IMG/VR virus record: IMGVR_UViG_3300032315_001309
Location: 12,305-76,304 of that record
Length of the DNA: 64,000 nucleotides
Reading direction: 5' to 3' (one strand)
From: a virus
Taxonomy: Duplodnaviria > Heunggongvirae > Uroviricota > Caudoviricetes
Positions 42,800-63,990 of the stretch are shown here, one piece after another (position 1 is the stretch's first letter; each line of letters begins with the position of its first letter). Below the pieces are notes generated by a model. That model ran no database searches. It saw nothing but the letters and a program-made list of their open reading frames with translations, and was not told the DNA's origin. The position numbers and the translations under genes were made by a program.

Positions 42800-42851
42800 G
42801 CTGGTTCTAAAATAAATCGGTTATTATTATTTCATACTGATTCAATAATCA

Positions 42852-44084
42852 ATGACTTCTATCCTTCTTCGCCCACACCAAGGATCCGCTCTGGATTTGA
42901 TGGATATGTACGAAACTGGAAAGATTATTCTCCCAACCGGTTCCGGTAAGAGTATCGTTTTTATTCAGAATACTATTAATCAATTTGAACAGGAAACACC
43001 ACAGATTGTTTGTGTTGTTGCTCCTAGGTTGCTTCTTGCGTGTCAATTGTCTGCTGATTATGAACAGTATATCACTAACGCCAAATATCTACACGTTCAT
43101 TCTGGAAGTAAGCTAAAGCATTATCGCACCACCAATACTGCAGATATCGAAGAATGGTGTCGAATTCATAAAGATGAACATAGGCTAATTTTTACATCTT
43201 ATAATTCTCTACATAAGATTACTAATTCTTCTATCGACGTGAATACTTATCACTTTGATGAATGTCATAATTCTGTGAAGAAAAATTTCTTTCCACATAT
43301 TGAAACCGCAACAAAAAAGGCGAATAAAAAATATTTCTTCACTGCGACACCTAAAAACTCTAAAATTCCTACCAAAAAGCCTGGTATGAATATTCAAGAG
43401 GTTTATGGTCACACTATTTGTGATATTCCGATGACACAAATGGTCAAGAGTGGATATGTTCTACCTCCACTTGTGATTAAAAAGAAAGTCCATAATCTGA
43501 TGAATGACGATGAGCGCAATTGTGATCTGATTATCACAACTCTCGATGAACAAGCCCCATCTAAGGTTCTCATTGCAGCAAAATCCACTAAATCCATTAT
43601 CTCTTTGATTTCGGACACTGATTTTGTTACGCAACTACGTGATCGAGATTATCATATTTTACATATCACGGCTGCTCATGGTGCTTATATTGACGGTAAG
43701 CAAGTCAAGCGGGATGCATTCTTCCGTATATTGAATGAGTGGGGTCTAGATGATTCTAAAAAGTTTGTTCTTTTAAATTACTCGATTCTCTCTGAGGGTA
43801 TCAATTGCACTGGACTTGATTCTGTGATCTTTCTTCGCAATATGAATGTTATCGCTATGTGCCAAACTATTGGTCGCATCATTCGTCTACACAAGAAAGA
43901 TTCCGATAAGCTTGCTACTAATCAACTCGAAGTGGGTGATTATGACAACTACAAAAAGCCTTATGGTGTAGTTGTTCTTCCTGTTTATGATACTTACTCT
44001 GAGTCTATTGCTGATGCTGTAGAATCAGTGATTCATAAGTCGTTTGTTATGGGACAGACGGTCTCAGATGAAATCGAGAAGTGA
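42852..44084 (+). CDS. uvsW: UvsW-like DNA helicase (SF2)
   Basis: LRPHQ...ILPTGSGKS (motif I), FDECHN (DECH box) and TIGRIIRL (motif VI) parallel T4 UvsW (LNLPTSAGKS, DECH, TIGRVLR). 410 aa. Confidence 0.6.
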   Translation: MTSILLRPHQGSALDLMDMYETGKIILPTGSGKSIVFIQNTINQFEQETPQIVCVVAPRLLLACQLSADYEQYITNAKYLHVHSGSKLKHYRTTNTADIEEWCRIHKDEHRLIFTSYNSLHKITNSSIDVNTYHFDECHNSVKKNFFPHIETATKKANKKYFFTATPKNSKIPTKKPGMNIQEVYGHTICDIPMTQMVKSGYVLPPLVIKKKVHNLMNDDERNCDLIITTLDEQAPSKVLIAAKSTKSIISLISDTDFVTQLRDRDYHILHITAAHGAYIDGKQVKRDAFFRILNEWGLDDSKKFVLLNYSILSEGINCTGLDSVIFLRNMNVIAMCQTIGRIIRLHKKDSDKLATNQLEVGDYDNYKKPYGVVVLPVYDTYSESIADAVESVIHKSFVMGQTVSDEIEK

Positions 44085-44161
44085 CACTTCATTAACTGTC
44101 CACTATATTCACTAGGTTGCCACTGCTTGTGGTAGCCTATCTATATTATCAAGAAATCAAC

Positions 44162-45487
44162 ATGTTTAAAATCTCGGAAAATTCAAATCCAAATTATCTT
44201 GCTCAGATTGTAAGCCTGAAAAATATTCGACCACACCCAAATGCGGATCGACTTCAGCTATGTACAATTCAGGGAAATAATATTATTGTATCTCTAGATG
44301 CAAGTGAAGGGGATGTTTATATTTATTTTCCTCTAGAGTGTGCTATTAATAAAGAATATCTTTCTTGGTCGAATTCCTTTTCAGATAAAACTTTAAATCA
44401 AGACCAAGAAGAAGTTGGCTTTTTTAGTCATAAAGGTCGAGTTCGTGCTGTAAAACTCAGGGGAACCCCATCAGAAGGATATGCGATTCCCGCAGATAAA
44501 CTTCTACAATGGCTAAGTGAAAAGCTAGGTAAAAATATTACGTTAAATGAAAAGTGGATCAATCAGGAATTTGATACTTTTGATGGAATTCTTCTTTGTG
44601 AGAAGTATGTAAACCAAGTTCAACTTCGGTCACAGAAGAATCTGGAGAATAAAAAGAAAGGGAAGAAAGCTGTTGAATCGAAACTGCTTGCTGGGCAGTT
44701 CCACTTTCACATTGACACACCTCAACTTAAAAAACTGGTTTCACATATTTCACCTTCCGATTATATTTCTATTACTAAGAAGTATCACGGTACCAGTGCA
44801 GTTGTATCCAATATTCTTTGTTTCCGAAAACTCAATTGGTTTGAGAAACTTCTTAAGCGATTTGGCGTTAAAATTCAAGAATATGAATATGATCTTGTGT
44901 ACTCCAGCCGTAAAGTAATTAAAAATGGAAATCGACAAGACGATATTCAACATTATTATTCTTCAGATATTTGGGGTATTGCAGCTAAGTATGTTCAACC
45001 TAGCCTGGAACCTGGAATTACTCTATACATGGAAATTGTAGGTTTCGTGAATGGAGGTGGATATATTCAACGTGACTATGATTATGGTTGCGAACCAGGC
45101 AAGTATGATATCTACGTGTATCGAATCACACATACTGATCCAACTGGTCGAATTTTTGAATATTCCCCGGCACAAGTGGAAGAATACTGTAACCGAAAGG
45201 GTATCAAAGCAGTAGAAACATATTATTATGGTAAGGCTGGGGATCTATTTGATGTAGATGTAGAAAATCATTGGCATCAAAACTTCCTTCAAAAAATGTG
45301 TGAAACCTATCTAGAAAAAGATTGCAGTCTTTGTGCAAACAAAGTCCCTGATGAAGGAATTGTGCTTCGTCGGGATGTTCCGAATGATATTGATGTTTAC
45401 AAACTGAAATCATTCAAGTTTCTTATGAAAGAAACAGCACAACTCGATGACGAGAACTTTGTTGATATGGAATCAGCCGATATTTGA
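44162..45487 (+). CDS. RNA-ligase-like nucleotidyltransferase (Rnl2-type KxHGT motif)
   Basis: ITKKYHGTSAVV resembles ligase motif I of the Rnl2 family (KIHGTN in T4 Rnl2). There is an N-terminal extension of about 200 aa. The start could be ATG 44117 or ATG 44162 (MFKISEN...). Confidence 0.4.
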   Translation: MFKISENSNPNYLAQIVSLKNIRPHPNADRLQLCTIQGNNIIVSLDASEGDVYIYFPLECAINKEYLSWSNSFSDKTLNQDQEEVGFFSHKGRVRAVKLRGTPSEGYAIPADKLLQWLSEKLGKNITLNEKWINQEFDTFDGILLCEKYVNQVQLRSQKNLENKKKGKKAVESKLLAGQFHFHIDTPQLKKLVSHISPSDYISITKKYHGTSAVVSNILCFRKLNWFEKLLKRFGVKIQEYEYDLVYSSRKVIKNGNRQDDIQHYYSSDIWGIAAKYVQPSLEPGITLYMEIVGFVNGGGYIQRDYDYGCEPGKYDIYVYRITHTDPTGRIFEYSPAQVEEYCNRKGIKAVETYYYGKAGDLFDVDVENHWHQNFLQKMCETYLEKDCSLCANKVPDEGIVLRRDVPNDIDVYKLKSFKFLMKETAQLDDENFVDMESADI

Positions 45488-45491
45488 ATTT

Positions 45492-45743
45492 ATGAAAGAA
45501 AAGTATTTGACTACTAACCAAGTAGCCAAGATATTGGAAATTGACTCACCCGAAACAATTCACAATTGGTTAGAGGGTGGACAATTTCCAGGATCATTTT
45601 TAAATGATGAGGGATATTGGCAATTTCCTTTATATATTGTTGAATTGGTAAAATCACGTATGAATATTATTAAAAATTTAAACATCATAGGTGATATTTA
45701 TGTATCTGACATAAATGACGATTTTCAGCCACCTCTATCATAG
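45492..45743 (+). CDS. putative HTH DNA-binding protein (excisionase/MerR-like HTH_17)
   Basis: LTTNQVAKILEIDSPETIHNWLEGGQFPG fits the pattern helix, turn, helix, W, then G..P. The ATG at 45492 avoids overlap with the previous gene. Confidence 0.35.
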   Translation: MKEKYLTTNQVAKILEIDSPETIHNWLEGGQFPGSFLNDEGYWQFPLYIVELVKSRMNIIKNLNIIGDIYVSDINDDFQPPLS

Positions 45744-45836
45744 ATGTGCCACATAAAAAACTGTCCACTCGTGACCAAACCGCTTCAAAAATGACCTATT
45801 ATTGGTCTGTTCACCAAACAATACAACATCACACTT

Positions 45837-46184
45837 ATGGAACAAGTTACACCCACCATTCATTCTGCTACTGATTTTGCATACGACGAGTATGAAGAAG
45901 ATCTTTCAGTAATGGCCTATAATCGCGCCACTAAACAATGGGAAATGGCGGAACTATATGAAGTAGAAGATGGTATTTCACCATATACTCGCTTCTTTTT
46001 CGTTGATGAACTTCCCACTCCTAAGGAAGACTCTAAGTTTGATGCCGCCAAGGCCAAACTTGACGAAATGATCAATTGGATCAATCGGTGGTCTGTGAAG
46101 GCCCCTGCGGTAGATGAAGCCCTGAATGGCTTCAGGACTTCAATTCATGAAATCCTAGATCAAATTGAAGAGAGCCAGTCCTGA
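45837..46184 (+). CDS. hypothetical acidic protein
   Basis: 115-aa ORF. Confidence 0.35.
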   Translation: MEQVTPTIHSATDFAYDEYEEDLSVMAYNRATKQWEMAELYEVEDGISPYTRFFFVDELPTPKEDSKFDAAKAKLDEMINWINRWSVKAPAVDEALNGFRTSIHEILDQIEESQS

Positions 46185-46255
46185 AACTGGACTAAGTAAA
46201 CCAGATTCCGTTAATCCCTCTGCTATCCTAAACAGGTTAGTCGAGGGATTTTTCC

Positions 46256-46936
46256 ATGTCGGTATGTTTTATTTCTGATGTCCATTCTCAGTATGATAGA
46301 CTGCAGAAAGCAGTAGATTATGCAGAGAGCCAAAATCTTCAAATCATCTTTTTGGGTGATTTGTTTGACTCGCGGGTGGATTACTCCGACACTTTTGGCA
46401 CATTAAATCTAATGTATCGCTGTATCAAAAGTGGTCATCTTTGTGTAAACTCTAATCACCAAGATAAGCTTATTCGTTATCTGAAAGGAAATAAAGTTGT
46501 ACAGAACAATGGCCTAGAGGTAACCGTTCGCCAACTGGAAGAAAATCAAGTAAACAAAACTGATCTACTGAATTTTCTCTCTTCTTTTGCCTATGGGATT
46601 GTTTGTAAAAACTCTCACGGAAAACAATTTCGGGTAGCTCATGCATACTTTCCAAATTTCCTGAATGTAGCAAAAACTGATGAGGTTCAATTCTTTCATG
46701 GAGAAAATCTGAATCGCAAGGCCAAAAATCTAATGATCTATGGTCCGACTGATCGGGATAATCTCAGGACCTTTTGGTGGAATTCTGAGAACAACAGTCG
46801 TGATTATATTAAAGTTGCTGGACATTATCACACTGTTCATGTTGATGATCACTCTGTGATCATTGATAGTGGTTGTGGTAGTGGTGGTTGTCTTTCTCTC
46901 TATGTTGCGGACACTACTGTTATTAAGGAGTTTTGA
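46256..46936 (+). CDS. calcineurin-like metallophosphoesterase (lambda-PPase / ApaH / Pnkp-phosphatase-type)
   Basis: Motif order ISDVHS (DxH), then FLGDLFDSR (GDxxDR), then VNSNHQD (GNH[DE]-like). Confidence 0.6.
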   Translation: MSVCFISDVHSQYDRLQKAVDYAESQNLQIIFLGDLFDSRVDYSDTFGTLNLMYRCIKSGHLCVNSNHQDKLIRYLKGNKVVQNNGLEVTVRQLEENQVNKTDLLNFLSSFAYGIVCKNSHGKQFRVAHAYFPNFLNVAKTDEVQFFHGENLNRKAKNLMIYGPTDRDNLRTFWWNSENNSRDYIKVAGHYHTVHVDDHSVIIDSGCGSGGCLSLYVADTTVIKEF

Positions 46937-47413
46937 ATGAATTATAAAAAATTGGAACCCTTTAAGGATGTTTTGTTGTTGAATGCGGATTACAATCCAA
47001 TTTCAATCATCAAATGGCGAAGAGCGGTTGTACTTCTCATGAAGAATCGAGTGAAATTCATTTCAAAACGAGTAGTATGTCTTTTTACATATATTAAAAT
47101 CCCACATCATAGACTTCTGAGCGTTAGACCGACAAAAAATCTAATTAAAAAATTTTGTAACTATCAATGTAGTTATTGTGGATCCATCAAAGATCTAACA
47201 ATTGATCACATTATTCCACTATCTCGTGGTGGTCTTCATGCCTTTGAAAACTTGACTTGTGCATGTTTAAAATGCAATGCAGAAAAGGGAAACAGAACGC
47301 CTGAAGAATGGGGAAAGCCACTGTATGTCAAGACATACAAACCTTTCAGTAGATTAGAAATTATTCTCAAAACTTCTAAGGTTGATGAATGGCTTGATTA
47401 TGTCTACAACTGA
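46937..47413 (+). CDS. HNH endonuclease (McrA-like)
   Basis: CNYQCSYCG...LTIDHIIPLSRGGLHAFENLTCACLKCNAEKGN is an HNH motif with flanking Cys pairs. Confidence 0.65.
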   Translation: MNYKKLEPFKDVLLLNADYNPISIIKWRRAVVLLMKNRVKFISKRVVCLFTYIKIPHHRLLSVRPTKNLIKKFCNYQCSYCGSIKDLTIDHIIPLSRGGLHAFENLTCACLKCNAEKGNRTPEEWGKPLYVKTYKPFSRLEIILKTSKVDEWLDYVYN

Positions 47414-48694
47414 CCAGTCCTAAAACTGGCACACCCATTTCGTTTCAGGCCCACCTTAGACTATATAATACTAAAGCAAACAACAGAGGAACAATTGGAT
47501 CAGCAACAGAAATTTCTTTTCGACATTATTTCCCAACTTGAGGACTGTATCCTTGATGCAGAATTCGATCTTGGGTCCGATTCGGTTCTTTACCAAAAAC
47601 TAAAGGATCTTGTGGAAACTGTAGAAACGTATCAAGAAAATCTATGAAATTCAAGGAGATTTAGACATGCCAACAGTTCAGGGAATTCAAAAAATACATA
47701 TCACCGACGTTGAAATTTTTTCGGAAAATGAAAAATATTTTGTTCGCGTTGATTATTCCGATGGGGAATCCGACGAATTCGGCCCTTATCGGTCACATGA
47801 AGAAGCTAAGTCCATCGTCTTTTAAATCAAAAAACAAACCCATCGAAAAGGAGATTTTATGAAAGTACACACCATGGAAACCACCAAAACGGAAGAATTT
47901 CAAAATCTATATGATCTTCTCGATGAAAAAGAAAATGAAAAAGAACAGGAAAGGTATTACCCTGAATTTGACGACCAAACTTGATCACTGTACCAATTTT
48001 AAAACTGTCCACCCATGGCCAAAAAACTCAAAAAAGCTGATATGCTTGATGGATCAGAGCACCCCGTCAAGGAAACTCTGATTGATGACTTACTTGATAC
48101 GGGATTGTTTAAATCTCCAGTTCAAGAAGTCTTTTCTCCAGAACTACAACAGCTTCTGGATGAATTTTAATCAATATCCCATTATTTTTAAGTAAACTAT
48201 GTCTCGTGAAGAAGCTCTTGTTATTATTCGCTCAGGTAAAAATGGCACCCAAATTCTAGATCTTCTAGATAAAGTCGCCACTCTTTGCCCCACTGAATCT
48301 ACTGTTGACTCTGAATTTTCTGACGTAAAATTTAATGATTGATACTCTTTCATTTAACTATGGAAATCTGACTACCATTATTGGATTTGTCGGTATCGTT
48401 TCATCTTTGGTGATCGTTGTTACTGCTTTCACAAAGCATTACAACTCACCGGTCAATAAGTAAGACCACTCTCTGAACTGTCCATTAGCTCCTATCAATT
48501 CGCTTGGTGGGGGCTATACTTTTGAAGTTAACTCATTGAACAATGAAACACTATTCGGCCCACTCACATACAGAATTTTTTGAGACAGATGATCTTGAAG
48601 AAGCCAAAGATATTGCAATGTCTATGTGCGAGCACTTTGGGTCTGGCTATGTAATCGACAACACAAACAATCAAGTAGTTGAGGAATACTGAAC

Positions 48695-50272
48695 ATGATT
48701 TTAAATTTTAAAGTACCAAAGAATATTTACAATAAAATTGATGCGTATGATTTGGTAAAGCCAAAAGAAGAAAGGGCGGCCGCCAAGGCAAAAAAAGTCA
48801 ATACTTTTCCTAAGGCTGGACTTCCCGAACAACTGATTCCAGAATCAGTGATTCCAAAGACGGTGTTGATGGAAGCAATTAACCTTTTGAATATTCGACA
48901 CAATGATACTTATTGGTACGATTCTGGTAGTTTTGCTGGGACTCATGGAAACATTCAATATCTAATTACCAAGAAAGCTAATAAGTATTGGTCCGCTATT
49001 TGGTTTGATACTCAAAATTCTGATATTGTATTTGGATTCTCTCATTCTTTTCGAAATCTAAAATCATACAAGAATTATCGTTATAATTCATTCTTGAATG
49101 AAACTAAACTTGACGAAACAAAATTCACTTCCGTAAAGCACAATAAGAAAGATTACCTTTATTATAGCCAACTGGTTACACCATCCGATCTAATTGATCG
49201 AAAGTTTAATTGTGTAATCCCGGCATATAATCAACGAAACGAAACAGTAGCTTTCACCAACCTATTTAAAGCCCGACTAGGTAAATATACTTTAGTCTGG
49301 AGTAAAAGTAATAATGTTTTTGAAGCATATAATACACCACTATATGATCTTCTGGGTGTACGTGGAATTAAGGATCATAATTGGGTTCCTGATTTCAATT
49401 ATATTCTAAGTAAAGTTCCTGATGTTTTTTCCAAAAAAATCAACATTCCATACTTTCGACGTAAGTTGACTGCGATGTGCGATGATGCAGTGAAACAATA
49501 TCAATCAAGTGATTTTGATCGATATAAACTCAAATTCAGTACACGATCTATTGAGATTCTACAATGGATTGATCAGATTTACGATTGGACTGTACCTGTT
49601 GATTATCTACAGCAGGTATGGGAGGACCTAAAATTTGATGAAAATACTTCACAGTTTCGATATGTAAACACAAGTAATCACAATGTAGGCACTGAATGGC
49701 TTCGCCAGAATGTCCCGATTAAATCCTTTATCAACATGTTTGTTCGGGATTATTCGGTATTCATTGATACTATCTCGATGTTACGTGATATTCTGGGGCG
49801 GAATCCAGATCTTAAGTATAATGGTAGGTGGCGGGTACAGGAACTACACGACTGGGCCATGGCTGAGCAATGGAAACAAAGTAACAAAAATCAAAACCTA
49901 CCTCAGGATCTATTTCCGGCTCCATTGAAAGTCGATAATATGACTTTCATTCAACCAATCAACACTCACCAACTTGCTCAATGGGGTCGAGCAGCCCGAA
50001 ATTGTGTGGGATCCTCTTCATACTATAATGGAATCATTAAGCATAATCATTTCATTATTCTGGCTCTCTCTAAAAATGAACCATACCTAACTATTCAGGC
50101 TAGGTTGGAAGGTGAGGAACTAAAGGTGACTCAGATCAAGAAAACATGCAACGAAAGTCTGAGTTATACGGAAGAAGATGAATACCGAAAAGTATTCCAA
50201 AAAGCTCTTATTATTCGTAGTGCTCAACTAGCAGAGGAACCACAAGAAGTTGAACCAGTAGTGGAATCATGA
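48695..50272 (+). CDS. hypothetical protein with PcfJ-like C-terminal region
   Basis: 525 aa. The C-terminal QWGRAARNCVGSSSYYNGIIKHNHFIILALSKNEPYLTIQARL resembles the PcfJ-family core (WG..NCV.S..Y...). Confidence 0.35.
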   Translation: MILNFKVPKNIYNKIDAYDLVKPKEERAAAKAKKVNTFPKAGLPEQLIPESVIPKTVLMEAINLLNIRHNDTYWYDSGSFAGTHGNIQYLITKKANKYWSAIWFDTQNSDIVFGFSHSFRNLKSYKNYRYNSFLNETKLDETKFTSVKHNKKDYLYYSQLVTPSDLIDRKFNCVIPAYNQRNETVAFTNLFKARLGKYTLVWSKSNNVFEAYNTPLYDLLGVRGIKDHNWVPDFNYILSKVPDVFSKKINIPYFRRKLTAMCDDAVKQYQSSDFDRYKLKFSTRSIEILQWIDQIYDWTVPVDYLQQVWEDLKFDENTSQFRYVNTSNHNVGTEWLRQNVPIKSFINMFVRDYSVFIDTISMLRDILGRNPDLKYNGRWRVQELHDWAMAEQWKQSNKNQNLPQDLFPAPLKVDNMTFIQPINTHQLAQWGRAARNCVGSSSYYNGIIKHNHFIILALSKNEPYLTIQARLEGEELKVTQIKKTCNESLSYTEEDEYRKVFQKALIIRSAQLAEEPQEVEPVVES

Positions 50273-51355: not shown

Positions 51356-51961
51356 ATGAGAGACCAAAATTATCTAGCACTAGATCTTGAAATCAATACT
51401 GATGGTAATGGCTGGGTCGGTGACATTATTCAGGTTGGAATTTCTGTTGGCAATCCCACAGTCGGAATTTATTTCGATGAAGATTTTCTGATCAAACCAT
51501 ATGAAAAAACCAATGGTGGACTGTTGACTCCATTTATCACACAATTAACCGGAATCACACAAGAAGAATTTGATCTGGACGGGGTCACACTTGCAGACTG
51601 TGCAGATAGACTAAAGCAAGTAATTAAGGAATATAACACCTTTGTGAATCCAGTACAATGGGGACTTGGTGATGCCGATGAACTGATGGATGCATTTAAA
51701 TATAAAACAATTGATTTTCCTAATTTTGGGCGGCGAGTAATTGATGTAAAACACCTTTTCTTGTACCTGGAGGCAGCCAACGGCAGAGCCCTCTCAGGCG
51801 GCCTAAGGAGCGCCATGGGCAAGTACAAGCTCCCTTTTGAGGGGAAGCCACACGATGCGGCCAGGGATGCCTACAACACGCTCAGATTCTTTTTTCACCT
51901 ACTGGAGCGTCAGAAGAAATTAGAAGACTGTGCTAGGTTGATGAAAACTATTGCGTATTGA
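51356..51961 (+). CDS. DEDD-family 3'-5' exonuclease (DnaQ/oligoribonuclease-like)
   Basis: LALDLE (Exo I D-x-E) and HDAARDAYNT (Exo III H-x4-D) are in the correct order. 201 aa. Confidence 0.55.
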   Translation: MRDQNYLALDLEINTDGNGWVGDIIQVGISVGNPTVGIYFDEDFLIKPYEKTNGGLLTPFITQLTGITQEEFDLDGVTLADCADRLKQVIKEYNTFVNPVQWGLGDADELMDAFKYKTIDFPNFGRRVIDVKHLFLYLEAANGRALSGGLRSAMGKYKLPFEGKPHDAARDAYNTLRFFFHLLERQKKLEDCARLMKTIAY

Positions 51962-54907: not shown

Positions 54908-55933
54908 ATGATTAAAAAAAAGTTTGACACCATTGTTTTTATTGGTAGATTTCAACCATTACACAATGCACACGTAGCTACAATAAAGAAAGCATATAGT
55001 CTTGCTGATCAAGTATTGATTGTAATTGGTTCCGCAGGAGAACCTAGCACATATAAGAATCCTCTATCAGCGGAACAGCGAGAGGATATTTTGATCTATG
55101 CAATGGCAGATATCGATATTCCAGAACAAGATTATAAGATCATTCACCAGGAAGATTGTCTCTATAGTAATCTTAAATGGTTTACTGAGATTCAAGATAA
55201 AATTACAAAACATACCAAGCCCACTGATAATATTGGAATTATCGGGTATGAGAAGGATAGCAGTAGTTTTTATCTCAAGGGATTTCCACAATGGGAATAC
55301 ATTGAAATGCCATTAGTAGAACATCTGAGTTCTACTGATATTCGGACTCTTTACTTTGTTGAATATCCAAATCTCAAATTCATTAAAGGTGTAATTCCTA
55401 AAGCAACCTTTGAGTTTCTTGAGGATAATTTAAACACCAGTTTCAGGACAAACATCGTAAAAGAACGAAGGTTTGTTGAGAACTATAAAAAACCATATGT
55501 GAATCTCCCATATCCTCCGATTTTCGTAACGACAGATGCCGTAGTTTTCCAATCGGGTCATGTTCTAATGATTCGCAGGAAGGCTTTCCCAGGAAATGGT
55601 CTACTCGCTTTACCTGGAGGATTTGTAAATGCAAATACTGATAAATCTCTTGAAGATGCTATGCTCAGGGAGTTGCGAGAGGAAACTAAGATTAAAGTTC
55701 CGCCCGCAGTTCTTAGAAGTAGTATCACTTCATCCCACGTATTTGATGCTATTGAACGAAGCACTAGAGGAAGAACTATCACTCATGCATTCAATATTGT
55801 TCTGAATGAACCAGAATTACCTAAACTAAGGGCGAGTTCCGATGCATCTGATGCAATGTGGATTCCGATTAGTCAAATCAAAAGAAGTGAGTGTTATGAA
55901 GATCATTATCATATCATTTCCTACTTTATCTAA
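54908..55933 (+). CDS. bifunctional NMN adenylyltransferase / Nudix hydrolase (NadM-Nudix, NatV-like)
   Basis: The N-terminal IVFIGRFQPLHNAH is a nucleotidyltransferase (H/T)xGH motif. The C-terminal GGFVNANTDKSLEDAMLRELREETKIKV is a Nudix box. Confidence 0.75.
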   Translation: MIKKKFDTIVFIGRFQPLHNAHVATIKKAYSLADQVLIVIGSAGEPSTYKNPLSAEQREDILIYAMADIDIPEQDYKIIHQEDCLYSNLKWFTEIQDKITKHTKPTDNIGIIGYEKDSSSFYLKGFPQWEYIEMPLVEHLSSTDIRTLYFVEYPNLKFIKGVIPKATFEFLEDNLNTSFRTNIVKERRFVENYKKPYVNLPYPPIFVTTDAVVFQSGHVLMIRRKAFPGNGLLALPGGFVNANTDKSLEDAMLRELREETKIKVPPAVLRSSITSSHVFDAIERSTRGRTITHAFNIVLNEPELPKLRASSDASDAMWIPISQIKRSECYEDHYHIISYFI

Positions 55934-55945
55934 TTATTATTAAAA

Positions 55946-56476: not shown

Positions 56477-56695
56477 TTATGAAAGTTCATACTACAGAAT
56501 TAGTTAAAAAAATTCTAGCTAACCCATCAGCACAAAAACAATTACAATAAGCTCTAACTAACCCAAATCAATGTATAGAACTTGATGGTAAAATATATGA
56601 GCTTGTAAAAGTTTGACAGATGTAAAGTCATTAAAACATGAAGACCTTCGGATAGACTGAAGGCAATTAAAAATCACTAAAGGAGATTTAGTACA

Positions 56696-58336: not shown

Positions 58337-58451
58337 ATGATTAGCTTATGACACTATCTCAACTGTCCATTACTACAACATCCTCTTCAAAAATCGGGTA
58401 TTGTATAGAAGTGATTGAGAAATCAACAGAACCTTGACAATTTAAACTTTT

Positions 58452-58524
58452 GGGTTAGTAGCATAGTGGCTAATGCACCTGGCTTTTAACCAGTATATCG
58501 TGAGTTCGAGTCTCACCTAACCCA
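58452..58524 (+). tRNA. tRNA-Lys (anticodon TTT)
   Basis: Manual fold: 7-bp acceptor GGGTTAG/CTAACCC, D-arm GCAT/ATGC, anticodon loop CTTTTAA, T-arm GTGAG-TTCGAGT-CTCAC. Confidence 0.65.
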
Positions 58525-58555
58525 TTAGGACACTATTATCTAAAATGTCCTATTT

Positions 58556-58626
58556 GTCTGGTTCGTCTAATGGTAAGACTGGAGCTTCCAAACCTTTTGA
58601 CGTGGGTTCGATTCCTACACCAGGCG
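58556..58626 (+). tRNA. tRNA, anticodon unresolved (possibly CCA, Trp)
   Basis: Acceptor GTCTGGT/ACCAGGC, D-arm GTCT/AGAC, T-arm GTGGG-TTCGATT-CCTAC. The anticodon stem could not be folded cleanly by hand. Confidence 0.4.
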
Positions 58627-58653
58627 TTAGGTTAAATATACCTAGATTTATTT

Positions 58654-58740
58654 GGGGAAATGGCAACTATCGGCAAGTGTTGCGGCGCTCTGTAAAAGCG
58701 TTACTTTGAACCGTTGGGGGTTCGACTCCCTCTTTCCTCA
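58654..58740 (+). tRNA. tRNA-Tyr (GTA), type II with long variable arm
   Basis: Acceptor GGGGAAA/TTTCCTC, anticodon arm GCGCT-CTGTAAA-AGCGT, T-arm GGGGG-TTCGACT-CCCTC. 87 nt. Confidence 0.5.
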
Positions 58741-58769
58741 TTAGTCATAAATATGACTAGTATATAATT

Positions 58770-58843
58770 GGTCCTGTAGCATAGTGGCCTAATGCACTAC
58801 CCTGTCACGGTAGATTACGGCGGTTCAAATCCGCTCAGGATCG
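58770..58843 (+). tRNA. tRNA-Asp (GTC)
   Basis: Acceptor GGTCCTG/CAGGATC, perfect anticodon stem CTACC/GGTAG with loop CTGTCAC, T-arm GGCGG-TTCAAAT-CCGCT. Confidence 0.7.
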
Positions 58844-58844
58844 T

Positions 58845-58870
58845 ATCTTGCTTCAATAGCAAGATTTTTA
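58845..58870 (+). terminator. hairpin terminator ATCTTGC-TTCAATA-GCAAGAT + TTTT
   Basis: Perfect 7-bp inverted repeat and a T run, directly after tRNA-Asp. Confidence 0.5.
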
Positions 58871-58897
58871 ACTTTATTATCTGAACACTGGAGAATC

Positions 58898-59155
58898 ATG
58901 GGAACAAATTCTAATTGTTGCTGCTATGAAGGAAAAGCTAATCACCCAGATGATGAAGCAGTAGATCGTTTTGCTACTGCTATGAAAGAAAAACTCGCCA
59001 AGAAACGGGAGCAAGGGTGTAGCGGGTGGCAAACTGCTTCGGCTGATTTGCTAAATCAGTTGCTCCAAGAACACCTAAGCAAAGGTGATCCTGTCGATAT
59101 TGCAAATTTTGCCATGATGCTGCATCAGAATGGCCAATCAATCGTAATAAAATGA
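58898..59155 (+). CDS. hypothetical protein
   Basis: 85-aa ORF with a GGAG ribosome-binding site, between tRNA clusters. GC content is higher than the average. Confidence 0.4.
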   Translation: MGTNSNCCCYEGKANHPDDEAVDRFATAMKEKLAKKREQGCSGWQTASADLLNQLLQEHLSKGDPVDIANFAMMLHQNGQSIVIK

Positions 59156-59355
59156 TTACTTTTGAAAGAAAAATGAGGTTGTATGAGAAACTTCATGTAG
59201 GTTGGTGGTGGATCGGGCAAATCTTTGACGAGTGGCGTTGGACCATGACTCATGATGATGGTGACTTCTTTAACTATCTTCAGTCAGATTATGTTGCTTA
59301 CGAGCAAGATATGTATTATGAAGTGAAAGATGGTAAGAAGATTACCACTAAATAA
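59152..59355 (+). CDS. hypothetical protein
   Basis: 67-aa ORF overlapping the previous stop. Confidence 0.35.
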   Translation: MITFERKMRLYEKLHVGWWWIGQIFDEWRWTMTHDDGDFFNYLQSDYVAYEQDMYYEVKDGKKITTK

Positions 59356-59362
59356 AACACAA

Positions 59363-59414
59363 TGGGATGTAGTTCAGCGGTAGAACGTCCTTCATGACGG
59401 TAAACTGTATTCAA
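59363..59414 (+). pseudogene. degenerate tRNA-like 5' fragment (acceptor + D-arm GTTC-AGCGGTA-GAAC, CAT-containing loop)
   Basis: Clear tRNA-type D-arm and a TTCATGA loop. No matching T-arm or 3' acceptor follows, and it abuts the start of tRNA-Asn. Confidence 0.25.
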
Positions 59415-59487
59415 TCCCCATGACTCAGCAGGCGACGAGGGCTGACTGTTAATCAGTTTTTGCTAGGATCGATACCTAGATGGGGAG
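59415..59487 (+). tRNA. tRNA-Asn (GTT)
   Basis: Acceptor TCCCCAT/ATGGGGA (U1-A72), anticodon arm GCTGA-CTGTTAA-TCAGT, T-arm CTAGG-ATCGATA-CCTAG. Confidence 0.5.
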
Positions 59488-59515
59488 TTGTCTGAATAGA
59501 CATTAAACTATTTGA

Positions 59516-59588
59516 GGGAGCATAGCTCAGCGGCTAGAGCAAACTCTTGATAAGGGTTAGGTCACAGGTTCAAATCCTGTTGTTCCCA
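59516..59588 (+). tRNA. tRNA-Ile (GAT)
   Basis: Acceptor GGGAGCA/TGTTCCC, D-arm GCTC/GAGC, anticodon arm AACTC-TTGATAA-GGGTT, T-arm ACAGG-TTCAAAT-CCTGT. Confidence 0.7.
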
Positions 59589-59610
59589 TTCCGCTGAATA
59601 AGTGGTGTAT

Positions 59611-59687
59611 TGCGGAAAAGTGTATTGGTTGCACACTGGGCTCATAACCCAGAGGTAGTCTCAAACGGTTCGATTCCTACTTCCGCC
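59611..59687 (+). tRNA. tRNA-Met-like (CAT) with atypical T-arm, possibly a pseudogene
   Basis: Acceptor (T)GCGGAA/TTCCGCC, D-arm GTGT/GCAC, perfect anticodon stem CTGGG/CCCAG with loop CTCATAA. The T-stem pairs poorly (AACGG-TTCGATT-CCTAC). Confidence 0.35.
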
Positions 59688-59756
59688 ATTGGGAAGCAAT
59701 TCTAGATTATCCCTTCCGGTGCACCCTACCGGGTCTGAATAGATGAAGTGGGTCCA

Positions 59757-59830
59757 GGGGAATTAGCTCAGATGTGTAGAGCACTTGGTTGAAGCCCAAG
59801 GTGTCGTCGGTTCGATTCCGACATTTCCCA
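59757..59830 (+). tRNA. tRNA-Phe (GAA)
   Basis: Acceptor GGGGAAT/ATTTCCC, anticodon arm CTTGG-TTGAAGC-CCAAG, T-arm GTCGG-TTCGATT-CCGAC. Confidence 0.7.
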
Positions 59831-59868
59831 TACGAGTCACTAAATAATAGTGACTCGATTCCTTTGTT

Positions 59869-60387
59869 ATGAAACATCTTCATCATATTATCCCAAAACA
59901 CGCAGGAGGAACTGACGAACCCTCCAATCTTATTGAACTTACTGTAGAAGAACATGCGAGGGAACATTACCTCTTGTGGAACCAATATGGTAGGTGGCAA
60001 GATAAAGTTGCGTGGAAGGGTTTATACGAAATGATAGATAAACAAGATGTTATTGCTAACATCAGGAATGAAATGTGGCAATCTTCTAGTCATAGAGAAA
60101 TGTTTTCTCACATAATGAAGCAAGTCTGGAAAAGAGAAGATTATCGTCAACGACAGTTGCAAATGTCAAATGTTTCTCAGCCGATTGCTACTTTAGCATC
60201 AACTTCACCCGAATCCAGACAAAAGAGAAAGAAGACTTTACAAGAAATCAATCATCAACAGGGTTCTAAAAACTCACAGTTTGGTAAGATGTGGATCACA
60301 AACGAAACTCATTCTTATAGGATAAATAAGAATGAGTCTATCCCCGAAGGTTACCGAAAGGGTAGAGTCATTAAAAGTAAGACCTAA
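59869..60387 (+). mobile_element. HNH homing endonuclease gene inside the tRNA island
   Basis: The N-terminal HHIIPKHAGGTDEPSNLIELTVEEHAREH is an HNH motif. The C-terminal GSKNSQFGKMWITNETHSYRI...PEGYRKGR is a NUMOD-like DNA-binding motif. A perfect 9-bp hairpin (GAGTCACTA/TAGTGACTC) sits just upstream. Confidence 0.65.
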
Positions 60388-60474
60388 GTGATTTTATAAA
60401 GCATTGGGGTGGAAATAACACACCACATTAAAACCGGGTTAGAAGTTTGTAGGTTTTCATAAACCTACCATTAT

Positions 60475-60548
60475 GGGGTCACATGTACCAAGGCTGGCGA
60501 GACTGCTTTGCAAGCAGACTGTGTAGAGTTCGATTCTCTATGATTCCA
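60475..60548 (+). tRNA. tRNA-Ala (TGC)
   Basis: Acceptor GGGGTCA/TGATTCC with the G3:U70 Ala identity pair, anticodon arm ACTGC-TTTGCAA-GCAGA, T-arm TAGAG-TTCGATT-CTCTA. The D-arm is poorly paired. Confidence 0.5.
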
Positions 60549-60570
60549 TTGATACTTAAAGTATCATTTT

Positions 60571-60641
60571 GGTCCTGTCGTCCCGTGGTTAAGACGCTGC
60601 CCTTTCAAGGCGGAACAAGAGTTCAATTCTCTTCTGGACTA
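60571..60641 (+). tRNA. tRNA-Glu (TTC)
   Basis: Acceptor GGTCCTG/CTGGACT, anticodon arm CTGCC-CTTTCAA-GGCGG, short variable loop, T-arm AAGAG-TTCAATT-CTCTT. Confidence 0.55.
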
Positions 60642-60649
60642 TTTCTCAT

Positions 60650-60750
60650 TTATGAGAAACCTGTTGAATACTCGGGCCAGTTGGACGGGAGTTAATGTTA
60701 AAGTGCTCAATGACTTTAATTCTTCAAGAGTTCGACTCTCTTGTGGTCCA
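60650..60750 (+). ncRNA. tRNA-like element of unresolved structure (T-arm AAGAG-TTCGACT-CTCTT present; possible atypical or pseudo-tRNA)
   Basis: Canonical T-arm and a possible CCA-proximal GTGGTCCA are present. No standard acceptor or anticodon arms could be built. A 6-bp inverted repeat TTAAAG/CTTTAA lies upstream. Confidence 0.2.
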
Positions 60751-60886
60751 TAATTTATAATCATTTGTAATTAAAATGTAACCAAAATGAGGAAAAAACT
60801 TGTTGGTTGGAATTTTGATTTTAGACTGTATGACTCTAGGCATTGGGATAATAAAAACAATTGTTGGCACTCACAGTAGGTAAGCA

Positions 60887-61180
60887 ATGAAAGGCACAGC
60901 ATATACAAAACTTTATAGTTATAATCCCATTCACGAACCCATAAGTGGGTTACCTTGGCATCTAGCCTTTGGTAAAATGCGAAGAGAAGCAATCAAGAAA
61001 GAGTTTTTGAATAATCCACGTCTTCAACAATGGGGCCTCCGTATTGATAGCTCATGGTGTCCACAATTAAAAAATGATCCAGAGTTAAGGCAACTTGTGA
61101 AATCTGGATTTCTGAAACAAGTAAGAAGATTCGATAAATCTTATTTGGTATTGAACGATGAATGTGTATCGACATATTAA
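60887..61180 (+). CDS. hypothetical protein
   Basis: 97-aa ORF. The overlapping minus-strand ORFs are judged spurious. Confidence 0.3.
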   Translation: MKGTAYTKLYSYNPIHEPISGLPWHLAFGKMRREAIKKEFLNNPRLQQWGLRIDSSWCPQLKNDPELRQLVKSGFLKQVRRFDKSYLVLNDECVSTY

Positions 61181-61418
61181 AAACGGTCACCTGTATTGGG
61201 TCTATCGTGATAGATATCATCAAATAAAGGTAGAACCTTTGTATTATGGTACGCCAAAGTTGACTTGTACTCAGAATCCAAGAAAGCTCACTCACTATAG
61301 TGGGCTTGAGAGTTTTACATTAACATATACAGAATAGATTGGTCCAATCTAAAAACTGACACACCAAGCAGGCTCAAGCCTGAATTCCTGATATGATTTT
61401 ATCAAATGAAATTAAATC

Positions 61419-61619
61419 ATGCGTTGGATTTGGCCCCCGAAAGAACATAAAGATTCCGAATTGGATGATCTTGTTAATAATGGGAAACTTAAAGAGTATT
61501 CTTATGTTTCTCTTGAAGATTACGAAAAACTCGTTTTGACTCTTCCATGCGGAACTAAAATTTCTATTGATTCTGAACCTGGAATTGAATGTAGTTCTCT
61601 TTCTGTTCGTGTATCCTAA
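61419..61619 (+). CDS. hypothetical protein
   Basis: 66-aa ORF. Confidence 0.3.
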   Translation: MRWIWPPKEHKDSELDDLVNNGKLKEYSYVSLEDYEKLVLTLPCGTKISIDSEPGIECSSLSVRVS

Positions 61620-61826
61620 ATGGAAAATAAATCAGTTGAAATTGATATGGAATTCATTCGAGAATTCACTGGGCTCTTTCAGGAAGTAAATTGTTCGCTA
61701 TTCAGGAAACCCAATCTACAAGAAAGAGTAGATGAATTTGTCGAAAAGTATTCTCATGTAATTAACAGAGAAGGTTATGAAAATCCCGAACCCAAACAAA
61801 ATCATGCAACTTACTGTCAACTATAA
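61620..61826 (+). CDS. hypothetical protein
   Basis: 68-aa ORF, contiguous with the previous one. Confidence 0.3.
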   Translation: MENKSVEIDMEFIREFTGLFQEVNCSLFRKPNLQERVDEFVEKYSHVINREGYENPEPKQNHATYCQL

Positions 61827-62007
61827 TTCACACACACAAATGTTTGTCTGGACCATATATGATGGCCCAGACGGAATTGATGAGGGTTGCGGCGATGCTC
61901 GTACTCTTGGTGAAGTGTTTGAACAAGTTACTATCTGGAGGCATAACAACGCCAAACAGTATTTCTGATAAATCGGTACTCAATACAAAAACCAACTACA
62001 AAATCTC

Positions 62008-62382
62008 ATGAAAAATAAAAAACTCAAAAGAATCAAAGCCTGGGTAAAAGCTCTCAAGTCTGGTAAGTATAAACAAACCACTGAACAACTATATGATGGA
62101 AAAGGATTCTGTTGTCTTGGTGTGGCCACGGACCTATATCTGAAAGAAAAGGGGAAGGAATGGCAAAAAGAAACTTCACGTTCTTATGGTGTTGATAATG
62201 AGTTTGATGAGATCGAAACCTCTGAACTTACTACAAGAATCGCTTCGTGGTATGGATTGAAATTAAGGTCACCAGAAGTTTCTCACAAAGGTCTCGGCAG
62301 AACATTGATGTATCTTAATGATAGTGAGAAACTTTCTTTCAAAAAGATTGCTAAGTTGATCAAAAAAACTTATCTAAAGTAA
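62008..62382 (+). CDS. hypothetical basic protein
   Basis: 124 aa, Lys-rich at both ends. Confidence 0.35.
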   Translation: MKNKKLKRIKAWVKALKSGKYKQTTEQLYDGKGFCCLGVATDLYLKEKGKEWQKETSRSYGVDNEFDEIETSELTTRIASWYGLKLRSPEVSHKGLGRTLMYLNDSEKLSFKKIAKLIKKTYLK

Positions 62383-62547
62383 AAAACATGAAAGATTATG
62401 ATTTGGAACGATTGATCGAGTCTGGTGATATCACTAAGTATGTGTATGAAGATGATGAGTACACTGAAAATGTCAAGATCACGTTTCCTTCTGGTTTGGT
62501 GTTATCTATTAGTTCTTCTGCAACTACCTATGGTGGTAGCGGTTTGA

Positions 62548-62913
62548 TTGTTGAAGTTGGTGAATGAAATGACTGAAAAAGATCTACTATTGCGACTAGA
62601 ACATATCTGTCAGGTATATCGTGACATTAACGACAAGTATTGGGAAGAAAATGATCTTACTTTAGAAGAAGTGAATCAATGTCTAGTCTACATTTCTGGT
62701 AAACTTCAAAATAATATATTCAATCGAGAAGATCCTGAACAGTGGCAAGAAGTTAAATATATTCTCTATGGACGACTAGAGAAGAAATCGCCCCAGACAA
62801 CGTTTGAACTATCTTTGGGACTTCCTGAGGGTGTTGGTACTGTTGTTCTGGATGAAATAGAATATGGTCGCATGTACCTAGATGAAAATTATCAAATTGG
62901 ATTAAAAAAATGA
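62548..62913 (+). CDS. hypothetical protein
   Basis: 121-aa ORF. Confidence 0.35.
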   Translation: MLKLVNEMTEKDLLLRLEHICQVYRDINDKYWEENDLTLEEVNQCLVYISGKLQNNIFNREDPEQWQEVKYILYGRLEKKSPQTTFELSLGLPEGVGTVVLDEIEYGRMYLDENYQIGLKK

Positions 62914-63110
62914 ACATAAAACAACTTAAAGAACTATTAAATGAACACCCTGATGATATGCGACTAGTTCGACGTGGGTATGAGGGTGGTTATTCTGATA
63001 TAGATGATTTAGTGGTGATTGGTTTGAAACTCAACAAAAATACTGCATGGTTTTACGGCCCACATGAAATTTCTACGGATGAAGACGAATTTGCACTTCT
63101 TATTGATTAA
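62910..63110 (+). CDS. hypothetical protein
   Basis: 66 aa, overlapping start (ATGA). Confidence 0.3.
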   Translation: MNIKQLKELLNEHPDDMRLVRRGYEGGYSDIDDLVVIGLKLNKNTAWFYGPHEISTDEDEFALLID

Positions 63111-63113
63111 AAA

Positions 63114-63446
63114 ATGAGCTACTACATTCTTGTTGTTGATCGTGACGGTGACGGGCTTGAAATGCTTACAGAAAATAAATATATGAATGTGTGTCTGTTT
63201 TTCACTAAAGAAGAACTTGATGCCGGAATCGTTGGTGCAATCAAGTATCTTAAAGATCAATTAGAATTTGGTCAAAATTACTCTGACATTGATTCAATGT
63301 TGAATGTTTTTGAATGTGTGAGTAGTATTGGTGATATCAGTACTGTAAATTACATCAGGAACATTCGGGAATCAATTGATGAGGAAGAAAAACAAAAAGA
63401 CAAACGACGAAAACTTTATTTGGAACTTCAACGGGAATTTGGCTAA
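63114..63446 (+). CDS. hypothetical protein
   Basis: 110-aa ORF. Confidence 0.35.
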   Translation: MSYYILVVDRDGDGLEMLTENKYMNVCLFFTKEELDAGIVGAIKYLKDQLEFGQNYSDIDSMLNVFECVSSIGDISTVNYIRNIRESIDEEEKQKDKRRKLYLELQREFG

Positions 63447-63480
63447 TAACCAAACTTCAAAAATTTCACACTAAATTATT

Positions 63481-63678
63481 ATGCCTAAACTATCTGACGC
63501 CGATAAAATCGGGGCAGTGATTTTCTCCACTGTTGTAACTCTCATTCTTATTATGATCGCCCACCAAAATATCATGAATAAACGACAACATGATTCTTTT
63601 GTTTTGTGCTTGAAATCGGGGGTTCCTAGTGAGTATGCTGATAATTCAATTGCATGTTCTTCTATTCTTCGTAATTAA
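63481..63678 (+). CDS. hypothetical small membrane protein
   Basis: Central TM helix VIFSTVVTLILIMIA. Confidence 0.3.
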   Translation: MPKLSDADKIGAVIFSTVVTLILIMIAHQNIMNKRQHDSFVLCLKSGVPSEYADNSIACSSILRN

Positions 63679-63683
63679 ATATA

Positions 63684-63908
63684 ATGACTCCTACCGAAGC
63701 CTCAGTTAAATTAGTAGAAATCATCGAAAAGCACATTGACTCTAAACCAACTGAATTGTATTTAAAAATTATGGTTCTTATGTGTGAATATGGTGATTCT
63801 TGTTATTTGGTAGCAAAACAAAAATATTATAAAGATGGTTATGGCGATGGACATTTTGATGGTTATCAAGAAGGATATGGTTCAGGCTGTAGTGATTCCG
63901 CGCCATAA
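63684..63908 (+). CDS. hypothetical protein
   Basis: 74-aa ORF. Confidence 0.3.
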   Translation: MTPTEASVKLVEIIEKHIDSKPTELYLKIMVLMCEYGDSCYLVAKQKYYKDGYGDGHFDGYQEGYGSGCSDSAP

Positions 63909-63918
63909 ATAAAATAAA

Positions 63919-63990
63919 GGCAGTATAGCTGAGTGGTAAAGCGCATCATTCATACCGATGTGATCATGAGTTCGATCCTCATTGCTGCCA
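63919..63990 (+). tRNA. tRNA-Met/Ile2 (CAT)
   Basis: Acceptor GGCAGTA/TGCTGCC, anticodon arm CATCA-TTCATAC-CGATG, T-arm ATGAG-TTCGATC-CTCAT. Confidence 0.65.

Follow-up and report, generated by a model that had tools for sequence, protein, structure and literature searches.

A cyanophage locus with an Rnl5-type RNA ligase and a Pnkp-type phosphoesterase as candidate parts of an RNA end-healing and end-sealing pathway

What use would a cyanophage have for an RNA ligase-like gene, a calcineurin-like phosphoesterase gene and an HNH nuclease gene in close succession? The question is raised by positions 44117-47413 of a 64,000-nucleotide stretch of the virus record IMGVR_UViG_3300032315_001309 (hereafter the window, meaning that whole stretch), for which an initial annotation, made from the sequence alone, had proposed a healing-and-sealing system for RNA cut by host anticodon nucleases. 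We consider it fairly probable that two genes of this region specify enzymes of a phage pathway for healing and sealing RNA ends, namely an Rnl5-type ATP-dependent RNA ligase and a stand-alone phosphoesterase of the Pnkp type. The source phage is a freshwater cyanophage: across positions 42800-47500 the window has 97.4% DNA identity to Synechococcus phages B3 and B23 (MN695334/5; about 244 kb; Kyanoviridae; T4-like cyanomyovirus), and Pfam searches recognise the T4-like markers gp32, gp59, gp53, ThyX and PhoH elsewhere in the window. The B3 counterparts of the flagged genes are gp24-gp28, every one of which is labelled 'hypothetical protein', and the B3/B23 genome announcement is silent on them (PMC7171214). 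For comparison, viral loci were collected around homologues of the ligase (80 loci), of the phosphoesterase (44 loci) and of a second, Rnl1-type ligase of B3 (51 loci). Individual fetched loci carry L-numbers (L001 and L084, B3 66235-76695, are both from B3), and L004-L011 make up a close clade. Structures were predicted for the ligase and the phosphoesterase, and Foldseek was run on both models.

The ligase gene (B3 gp24; 44162..45487, plus strand, as are all the genes of this region described below) encodes 441 aa and is recognised by Pfam, PHROG, NCBIfam and fold comparison. The open reading frame (ORF) first proposed, 44117-45487, is present, but its start has to be moved: the TTG at 44117 is only the maximal-ORF start, whereas the ATG at 44162 is almost certainly the real one, because homologues begin there, because B3 is annotated from there and because a terminator-like hairpin (44113-44139) overlaps the TTG. 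In a scan for promoters and terminators the counts were not above those in shuffled sequence, and this hairpin alone was noteworthy. The KxHGT motif claimed for the protein is found as K207-Y-H-G-T-S at 44780-44797, and K207, H209, G210, T211 and S212 are unchanged in an alignment of 36 homologues. Also invariant in these homologues are E291 (motif III), Y320-R321 (motif IIIa), the E398-G399 of motif IV (E398-G399...R403, from 45353) and the K414-x-K416 of motif V (45401-45409), where motif names were given by pattern and not by residue-level alignment to the Naegleria gruberi RNA ligase (NgrRnl). The motifs belong to an adenylyltransferase domain at about aa 200-430 (PF09414 RNA_ligase), which is preceded by an N-terminal OB domain at about aa 13-110 (44198-44491; PF21189); in the Pfam search, PF21189 ('PHA02142 OB-fold') was placed at aa 28-125 of the TTG-start ORF and PF09414 in its C-terminal part. 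The chain ends about 25 aa past motif V, with no further C-terminal domain.

This architecture is the one by which Rnl5 ligases are defined, a C-terminal adenylyltransferase joined to a signature N-terminal OB domain. The PHROG 968 family, 'RNA ligase', matches the protein end to end (E 7e-59). For the AlphaFold model (pLDDT 88.9), the best Foldseek matches are 13 PDB entries of the N. gruberi RNA ligase (E 2e-15, TM 0.71-0.73), which is the Rnl5 family's structural prototype, and the alignment with NgrRnl spans the whole chain, about 430 columns. T4 Rnl2, in contrast, aligns over the nucleotidyltransferase domain alone (about 275 columns, TM 0.41-0.43, E 7e-8), as does the editing ligase (E about 1e-7, TM about 0.4), and in a PDB phmmer search T4 Rnl2 matches with an E-value of 0.71. 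The label 'Rnl2-type' therefore had to be given up, since the OB domain is N-terminal, the fold match to NgrRnl is full-length, and motif I (KxHG) alone is Rnl2-like. Membership of the Rnl2 family is not supported, as the Rnl2-specific C-terminal domain is lacking and the extra domain is instead an N-terminal OB fold. The TIGR02306 model (DraRnl family) matches the N-terminal part of the ligase alone (4e-9; 35.7 bits against a cut-off of 151); by sequence, the protein is best described as a distant Rnl5 branch and not as a TIGR02306 equivalog. Structure prediction had been named as the check on this ORF, and the predicted model has an RNA-ligase-type adenylyltransferase fold with the lysine motif intact. 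We hold the fold assignments of this model and of the phosphoesterase model, discussed next, with very high confidence.

The phosphoesterase gene (B3 gp27; 46256..46936) starts 769 bp after the ligase stop, in agreement with the roughly 800 bp first estimated, and encodes a stand-alone binuclear metallophosphoesterase of 226 aa that sequence, profile and fold all assign to the Pnkp type. Pfam Metallophos matches it at 1e-7. In a PDB phmmer search the top match is 4j6o (1.3e-8), with nothing else of note; this entry is the phosphatase domain of Pnkp from Clostridium thermocellum (CthPnkp) (PMC3675462). The top NCBIfam match is TIGR04075 bacter_Pnkp over positions 212-398 of 851 (1e-14; 53.6 bits against a cut-off of 750), followed at lower scores by PrpE (4e-7) and ApaH (2e-5). 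With the predicted structure (pLDDT 93.9), Foldseek again places 4j6o at the top (E 4e-13, TM 0.78), ahead of lambda phosphatase (6e-8, TM 0.57), which is not among the PDB phmmer matches at E<1. Lambda phosphatase and its PPP relatives, and likewise ApaH/PrpE, are ruled out as nearest kin, as Pnkp scores better by sequence, by profile and by fold. The suggestion that this calcineurin-like fold is of the kind that supplies the Pnkp 2',3'-phosphatase is thus upheld, the protein being nearest to Pnkp and not to protein phosphatases in all three comparisons. Clustering with Ser/Thr protein phosphatases had been put forward as the result that would speak against an RNA substrate, and the outcome favours RNA; the criterion is not a sharp one, however, because phosphodiesterase activity is also known for lambda phosphatase, which has been assayed on 2',3'-cyclic nucleotides (PMC2190708).

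The catalytic residues point the same way. Nine residues are essential in CthPnkp (D187, H189, D233, R237, N263, H264, H323, H376 and D392), and these map to D8, H10, D35, S39/R40, N67, H68, H129, H190 and D204 of the cyanophage protein, with eight of the nine in register. Together with R40 and with D38, the equivalent of CthPnkp D236, the eight make up an active site whose residues are unchanged in 35 homologues, R40 being nearly invariant. We predict that the protein is an RNA 2',3'-cyclic phosphodiesterase/3'-phosphatase.

A different substrate would make the nearness to the ligase incidental. The phosphoesterase could act on small nucleotides, such as diadenosine tetraphosphate (Ap4A) in the manner of ApaH/PrpE, ADP-ribose derivatives or cyclic-nucleotide defence signals, or on phosphoproteins in the manner of lambda phosphatase or NinI. 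We do see a match to PHROG 246, 'NinI-like serine-threonine phosphatase' (6e-11), the weak PrpE and ApaH profile matches noted above, and Foldseek matches to lambda phosphatase and ApaH at about 1e-7. A 37%-identical homologue in phage S-CBWM1 lies beside an NMN (nicotinamide mononucleotide) adenylyltransferase gene, the copy in phage PA5oct sits among nucleotide-metabolism genes, and the window itself has an NAD-salvage/NADAR cluster. Nevertheless, three independent comparisons each rank Pnkp first, with a lead of 5-7 orders of magnitude. A kinase is found at 24 of the 44 phosphoesterase loci, and in 22 it is a polynucleotide kinase gene directly upstream; relatives of the protein are fused to kinases and RNA ligases. 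On balance, action on small nucleotides or phosphoproteins seems to us quite improbable.

An end-healing pathway also calls for a 5' kinase, and the initial annotation had seen no P-loop kinase here. This is correct for the window, where neither tblastn nor Pfam scans of the sizeable ORFs found one. A kinase remnant was sought with nine kinase queries, which gave chance matches alone (tblastn, E > 0.9), and Pfam scans of the window's other sizeable ORFs found no RtcB or other healing enzyme. It had been supposed that 5'-phosphorylation would then need another enzyme or an RtcB-like chemistry. An exotic chemistry is not called for, since sister phages have a kinase between the two genes and B3 has a kinase outside the region that corresponds to the window. 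In L004 and L006-L011, whose ligases are 56-71% identical to that of the window, the order is helicase, ligase, P-loop kinase, gp26, phosphoesterase and HNH, and the kinase is an AAA_33 protein of 159-174 aa whose start abuts or overlaps the ligase stop. The window and B3/B23 differ from this order in one point, in that the kinase slot is occupied by a small helix-turn-helix (HTH) ORF of 83 aa (B3 gp25; 45492..45743), whose Pfam match to HTH_17 (1.9e-5) falls short of the gathering score and whose PHROG excisionase/HTH matches are weak. Its product is probably not a repair enzyme.

B3 and B23 nonetheless encode a kinase. The kinase-only protein gp131 (150 aa; AAA_33 6e-16) has 46% identity to the cassette kinase of L004, and its B3 gene lies at 71.2 kb, about 20 kb past the window end and two genes after gp129. 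The latter is a T4-RnlA-family ligase (PF09511 8e-33; TIGR02308 4e-37) with an Rnl1 C-terminal domain. Both genes are unannotated in B3. Such a pair of Rnl1-type ligase and kinase, within about 2.7 kb of each other, is found in 38 of the 51 Rnl1-type loci, with a phosphoesterase adjoining in one of the 51. The toolkit of the B3 lineage appears to be split, with an Rnl5-type ligase and phosphatase at one locus and an Rnl1-type ligase and kinase at another, and from the 97% identity to B3 we infer that the window phage has the second locus too. The idea that the kinase had been relocated was dropped: the Rnl1-kinase pair occurs as a conserved module in its own right, which makes it more likely that in B3 the cassette kinase was lost and the other one retained. 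In the same part of the B3 genome, gp128, on the opposite strand from gp129 and gp131, is a multi-HTH protein with NUMOD1/ANT-like matches, and gp125 has a weak Macro domain match.

With its kinase lost, the locus could be read as a decaying remnant in which the ligase and phosphoesterase persist by ancestry or for separate reasons, and the unrelated HTH ORF in the kinase slot of the window and B3/B23 would fit such decay. Against this, neither gene is damaged and every catalytic residue is present, and metagenomes hold copies of the phosphoesterase at 100% identity, on a contig of 204,864 bp, and of the ligase at 99%. B3, moreover, keeps a related kinase elsewhere, and no other recognisable 3'-phosphatase is found near its Rnl1-kinase pair. 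We regard decay as highly improbable.

The wider gene neighbourhoods were then considered, with the ligases clustered at 80% identity into 54 lineages and kinases counted within 10 kb. A P-loop kinase or a T4-type kinase-HAD Pnkp is near the ligase in 24 lineages, in 20 of them within 2.5 kb, and the Pnkp-type phosphoesterase family is near it in five. The arrangements vary: L020 and L024 have the ligase, a gap, and then kinase and phosphoesterase, and in L002, L003 and L017 a phosphoesterase and a 72-aa ORF precede the ligase, without helicase or HNH. Among annotated phages, this ligase family is paired with pseT/Pnk in Mycobacterium phage 244 and Bacillus phage Kirov. Starting from the phosphoesterase, we see an Rnl1-type ligase, a kinase and the phosphoesterase in that order at eight loci (L148-151, L154-156 and L163). 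A profile search of 1.8 billion representatives showed an N-terminal extension in 27 of the best 150 distant phosphoesterase relatives; all nine of the extended relatives that were scanned are AAA_33 kinase-phosphoesterase fusions. Two of these have an Rnl1-type ligase domain as well, and another, with its PNKP_ligase domain, is a canonical Pnkp. Because the same families occur, in unrelated lineages, as separate genes, as two-domain fusions and as three-domain fusions, these arrangements give strong evidence that the kinase, phosphoesterase and ligase activities would work together. Recurrent ligase neighbours in the more distant phages (L012-L083) are a CCA-adding-enzyme-like nucleotidyltransferase (18 loci, many of them redundant), an ATP-dependent DNA ligase and a second, unrelated metallophosphoesterase family (7 loci).

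Neighbouring genes also bring up a role in DNA replication or repair, in which the ligase would seal nicks with RNA on the 3' side (primers, R-loops or embedded ribonucleotides, as for D. radiodurans Rnl5) together with a UvsW-like helicase, and the phosphoesterase would be unrelated. A superfamily-2 helicase gene of this kind (42852..44084; Pfam ResIII, DEAD and Helicase_C; PHROG 16 5.5e-50), with counterparts annotated UvsW or helicase in other cyanophages, stands immediately upstream of the ligase in the window and throughout L004-L011. A DEDDh (RNase T-like) 3' exonuclease is encoded at 51356..51961 (Pfam RNase_T 5e-8), and homologues with 50-56% identity are found directly upstream of the ligase in L012-L014 and about 0.8 kb upstream in L015, with others within 2-4 kb of the ligase in L020 and L024. 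This recalls the D. radiodurans Rnl5 ligase, which shares an operon with the DEDDh-like gene DR_B0095 and whose knockout slows genome reassembly after irradiation; the authors leave the choice between an RNA and a DNA role open (PMC5397189). A DNA ligase lies near the RNA ligase in some phages (one ligase-neighbour cluster, and Kirov). However, the nearest recognisable partner is a 5' kinase or T4-type Pnkp in the 24 of 54 lineages counted above, and some lineages have a CCA-adding-like enzyme as partner; these are RNA end-healing partners. The helicase link is also lost outside the close clade, as in L002 and L017. A role in DNA replication or repair in place of RNA repair is distinctly unlikely, and by analogy with the Deinococcus operon the exonuclease may be an accessory partner of the ligase that trims 3' ends.

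The pathway that we favour would run as follows. The locus would derive from a cassette that joined three genes, for the ligase, a 5' kinase and the 2',3' phosphatase. When a host ribotoxin or another metal-independent RNase cut an RNA to leave a 2',3'-cyclic phosphate and a 5'-OH, the phosphoesterase would open and then remove the cyclic phosphate to give a 3'-OH, and a kinase encoded elsewhere in the genome (gp131 in B3) would make the 5'-phosphate. The ligase would self-adenylylate on K207, move the AMP to the 5'-phosphate and seal the break; like other Rnl5 enzymes, it would probably do so where the strands are base-paired. Replacement of the cassette kinase by the small HTH gene would have left a kinase-less locus dependent on the second one, with the HNH gene as a co-transcribed passenger or an accessory DNA nuclease. 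The natural RNA substrate may be tRNA; a specific role against anticodon nucleases, as first proposed, is doubtful, and the targets named for it (PrrC, RloC, Retron-Eco7 and PARIS) are speculative.

Several observations weigh against this pathway. In the phosphoesterase, R40 lies one position after the column of Pnkp R237. Most ligase lineages (49 of 54) have no Pnkp-type phosphoesterase nearby, the gene order shared within L004-L011 could reflect inheritance alone, and the phosphoesterase homologues of S-CBWM1 and PA5oct keep their NMN adenylyltransferase or nucleotide-metabolism neighbours without a ligase. The kinase is known from the related B3 and not from the window sequence. What characterised Rnl5 enzymes seal, in an Mn-dependent reaction, is 3'-OH/5'-PO4 nicks in duplexes that have RNA on the 3'-OH side. 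The physiology of these enzymes is uncharted, and the sole Rnl5 knockout, in Deinococcus, points to DNA repair (PMC5397189). In short, the heal-and-seal proposal is largely supported by the ligase, the phosphatase and the ties to a kinase, and it is not supported in its Rnl2 label, in the role given to HNH and in the link to the tRNA island.

The HNH endonuclease gene (46937..47413; Pfam HNH_5 2e-14 and HNH domains; PHROG 16726 8e-41) follows the phosphoesterase stop without a single intervening base and is preceded by an AAGGAG ribosome-binding site; judged by this layout, the two genes are predicted to be co-transcribed. The ORF that had been counted into the repair set is thus present, but its pattern fits a mobile nuclease better than a repair role. 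In the close clade HNH is kept after the phosphoesterase at 70-75% identity. In L155, L156, L087-L089 and L123, by contrast, full-length members of the family with 41-48% identity lie between the Rnl1-type ligase and the kinase, the sister cassettes L148-151 and L090-L095 lack it, and homologues in S-CRM01, S-TIM5 and S-CBWM1 are away from any phosphoesterase. Because its presence and insertion points vary among related cassettes, the likeliest identity of the protein is that of a mobile or accessory DNA nuclease, and its candidacy as a repair nuclease was set aside on these same grounds. Mycobacterium phage BaboJay has an annotated gene for an HNH endonuclease between two coding sequences labelled 'RNA ligase'. 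HNH-ligase fusions have been reported (PMC7824862), which leaves some chance of a functional tie.

A broader scheme would give HNH more to do. In a two-locus, mix-and-match network, one phosphatase and one kinase would serve both the Rnl5-type ligase, for base-paired breaks, and the Rnl1-type ligase, for loop breaks, with HNH as a partner. This scheme is rather unlikely; were it true, the Rnl5 clade would gain a defined role in countering host RNA-cleaving defences, and HNH would count as a working member of the system and not as a passenger.

Between the HTH and phosphoesterase genes lies a conserved small ORF of the B3 gp26 family (45837..46184; tblastn), which has no Pfam, PHROG or NCBIfam match. 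By tblastn, counterparts with 36-40% identity hold the same position in L004 and L006-L011, so that in the close clade this ORF is always between kinase/ligase and phosphoesterase; it has four close homologue clusters among 5.8 billion proteins. Downstream of HNH, the 525-aa protein of 48695-50272 has a C-terminal PcfJ-like domain (7.7e-10) and is kept 1-4 kb from HNH in all close relatives, with 37-43% identity. Upstream of the helicase, a tail-fibre-region ORF at 40699-42189 carries collagen-like GPAGPAG / GIGSTGPAGPAG repeats; its B3 counterpart is part of a longer, 5.7-kb gene, gp21, and the region differs between the two phages.

The tRNA island that was brought into the initial annotation lies at 58451..63990 (plus strand) and comprises ten tRNA or tRNA-like genes by ARAGORN and Rfam: Lys-UUU, Trp, Tyr, Asp, one tRNA-like gene, Ile, one Met-like gene, Phe, Glu and Met. 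ARAGORN calls eight of these; Rfam confirms seven of the eight and adds two weak ones, with eight of the Rfam tRNAs at the gathering score and one more under laxer filters. The figure of at least 11 tRNAs is accordingly reduced to 10. The island is 11 kb downstream of HNH, and no link between it and the repair genes is supported apart from a shared counter-defence theme. Within it, the window has tRNA-Phe(GAA) at 59757-59830 where B3 (L001 36680-36752) has tRNA-Ala(UGC) at the same position with an identical upstream flank, which is a tRNA gene replacement between otherwise about 97% identical phages. A 172-aa ORF inside the island (59869-60387) has a weak HNH match (1.9e-4), and coordinate arithmetic puts the Glu-UUC tRNA (60570) about 700 bp out of place relative to B3; this shift suggests that the ORF is an inserted mobile nuclease gene.

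Just upstream of the island is the NAD-related cluster mentioned above, with genes for a bifunctional NMN adenylyltransferase-Nudix protein (54908-55933), a NADAR domain protein (55946-56476; 1.7e-47) and a nicotinamide phosphoribosyltransferase (56696-58084). Together, 54908-58084 looks like an NAD+ salvage and ADP-ribose processing set, of the kind proposed to act against NAD-depleting defences. Phage tRNAs and NAD-related genes have been reported alongside RNA repair sets (PMC7824862).

The locus contributes a composition, and its principle is not new: earlier comparative work on the genomes of large phages listed sets of RNA ligases, polynucleotide kinases and phosphoesterases as counter-defence RNA repair systems, with calcineurin-like phosphatases 'in a small number' of cases (PMC7824862). 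New here is the combination of a free-standing Pnkp-type phosphatase, a free-standing kinase and a ligase of Rnl5 architecture. In the locus and its relatives the Pnkp-type phosphatase has a phage gene to itself, in modular combination with separate kinases and with ligases of either the Rnl5 or the Rnl1 type, and in the window phage there is the further twist that a kinase-less locus would be complemented by a second one. Five B3/B23 genes (gp24, gp27, gp129, gp131 and HNH) gain a usable annotation, and the cultured B3 and B23 are isolates in which the physiological role of Rnl5-type ligases can be tested. Phage RNA repair is, to our knowledge, known experimentally almost only from T4, where Pnkp and Rnl1 act against PrrC, and work on the Pnkp-type phosphatase of bacteria has dealt with it as one portion of a fused enzyme.

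Compared with that T4 system, in which Pnkp and Rnl1 repair tRNA-Lys after PrrC cleavage, the cyanophages are alike in being T4-like phages that combine RNA ligases with end-healing enzymes, and B3 pairs a T4-RnlA-family ligase with a kinase. The KxHGT motif I of the window ligase also presumably resembles that of T4 Rnl2. The 3' healing enzyme differs, however, being a binuclear metallophosphoesterase in the window and a DxDxT (HAD) phosphatase fused to the kinase in T4, and the window ligase has an N-terminal OB domain in place of the C-terminal domain of Rnl2. By tblastn and Pfam, the window contains no set of T4-type kinase-DxDxT phosphatase and Rnl1.

The phosphoesterase is nearest, in both sequence and fold, to the Pnkp-Hen1 system of C. 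thermocellum, with which it shares its metal- and phosphate-binding residues. An AAA_33 5' kinase, a metallophosphoesterase and an ATP-dependent RNA ligase are found together in sister phages as they are in Pnkp. Unlike the single polypeptide of about 850 aa, the cyanophage activities reside on separate small proteins, the window ligase is of the Rnl5 type (Rnl1 at the second B3 locus) and not the Pnkp (Rnl4) ligase domain, and the kinase is absent from the window locus. No Hen1 methyltransferase was seen among the Pfam-scanned ORFs of the window, a scan that did not take in the structural ORFs at 22-42 kb.

With DraRnl and NgrRnl (PDB 5COT), the window ligase has in common an N-terminal OB domain, a C-terminal adenylyltransferase and the lack of a further C-terminal domain, and DEDDh exonuclease genes recur near the ligase, which matches the operon of Deinococcus. 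It differs in being about 100 residues longer, in an identity of 15-17%, in having KxHG in motif I where theirs is KxDG, and in being set among end-healing genes. Members of its own family, PHROG 968, are found in the Mycobacterium phage 244/Cjw1 group and in Bacillus phage Kirov; they are 27-31% identical over the full length, and a polynucleotide kinase or kinase-phosphatase is encoded less than 1 kb away. There, the partner is a T4-type kinase-HAD phosphatase, whereas the cyanophage clade has a separate kinase and a Pnkp-type metallophosphoesterase.

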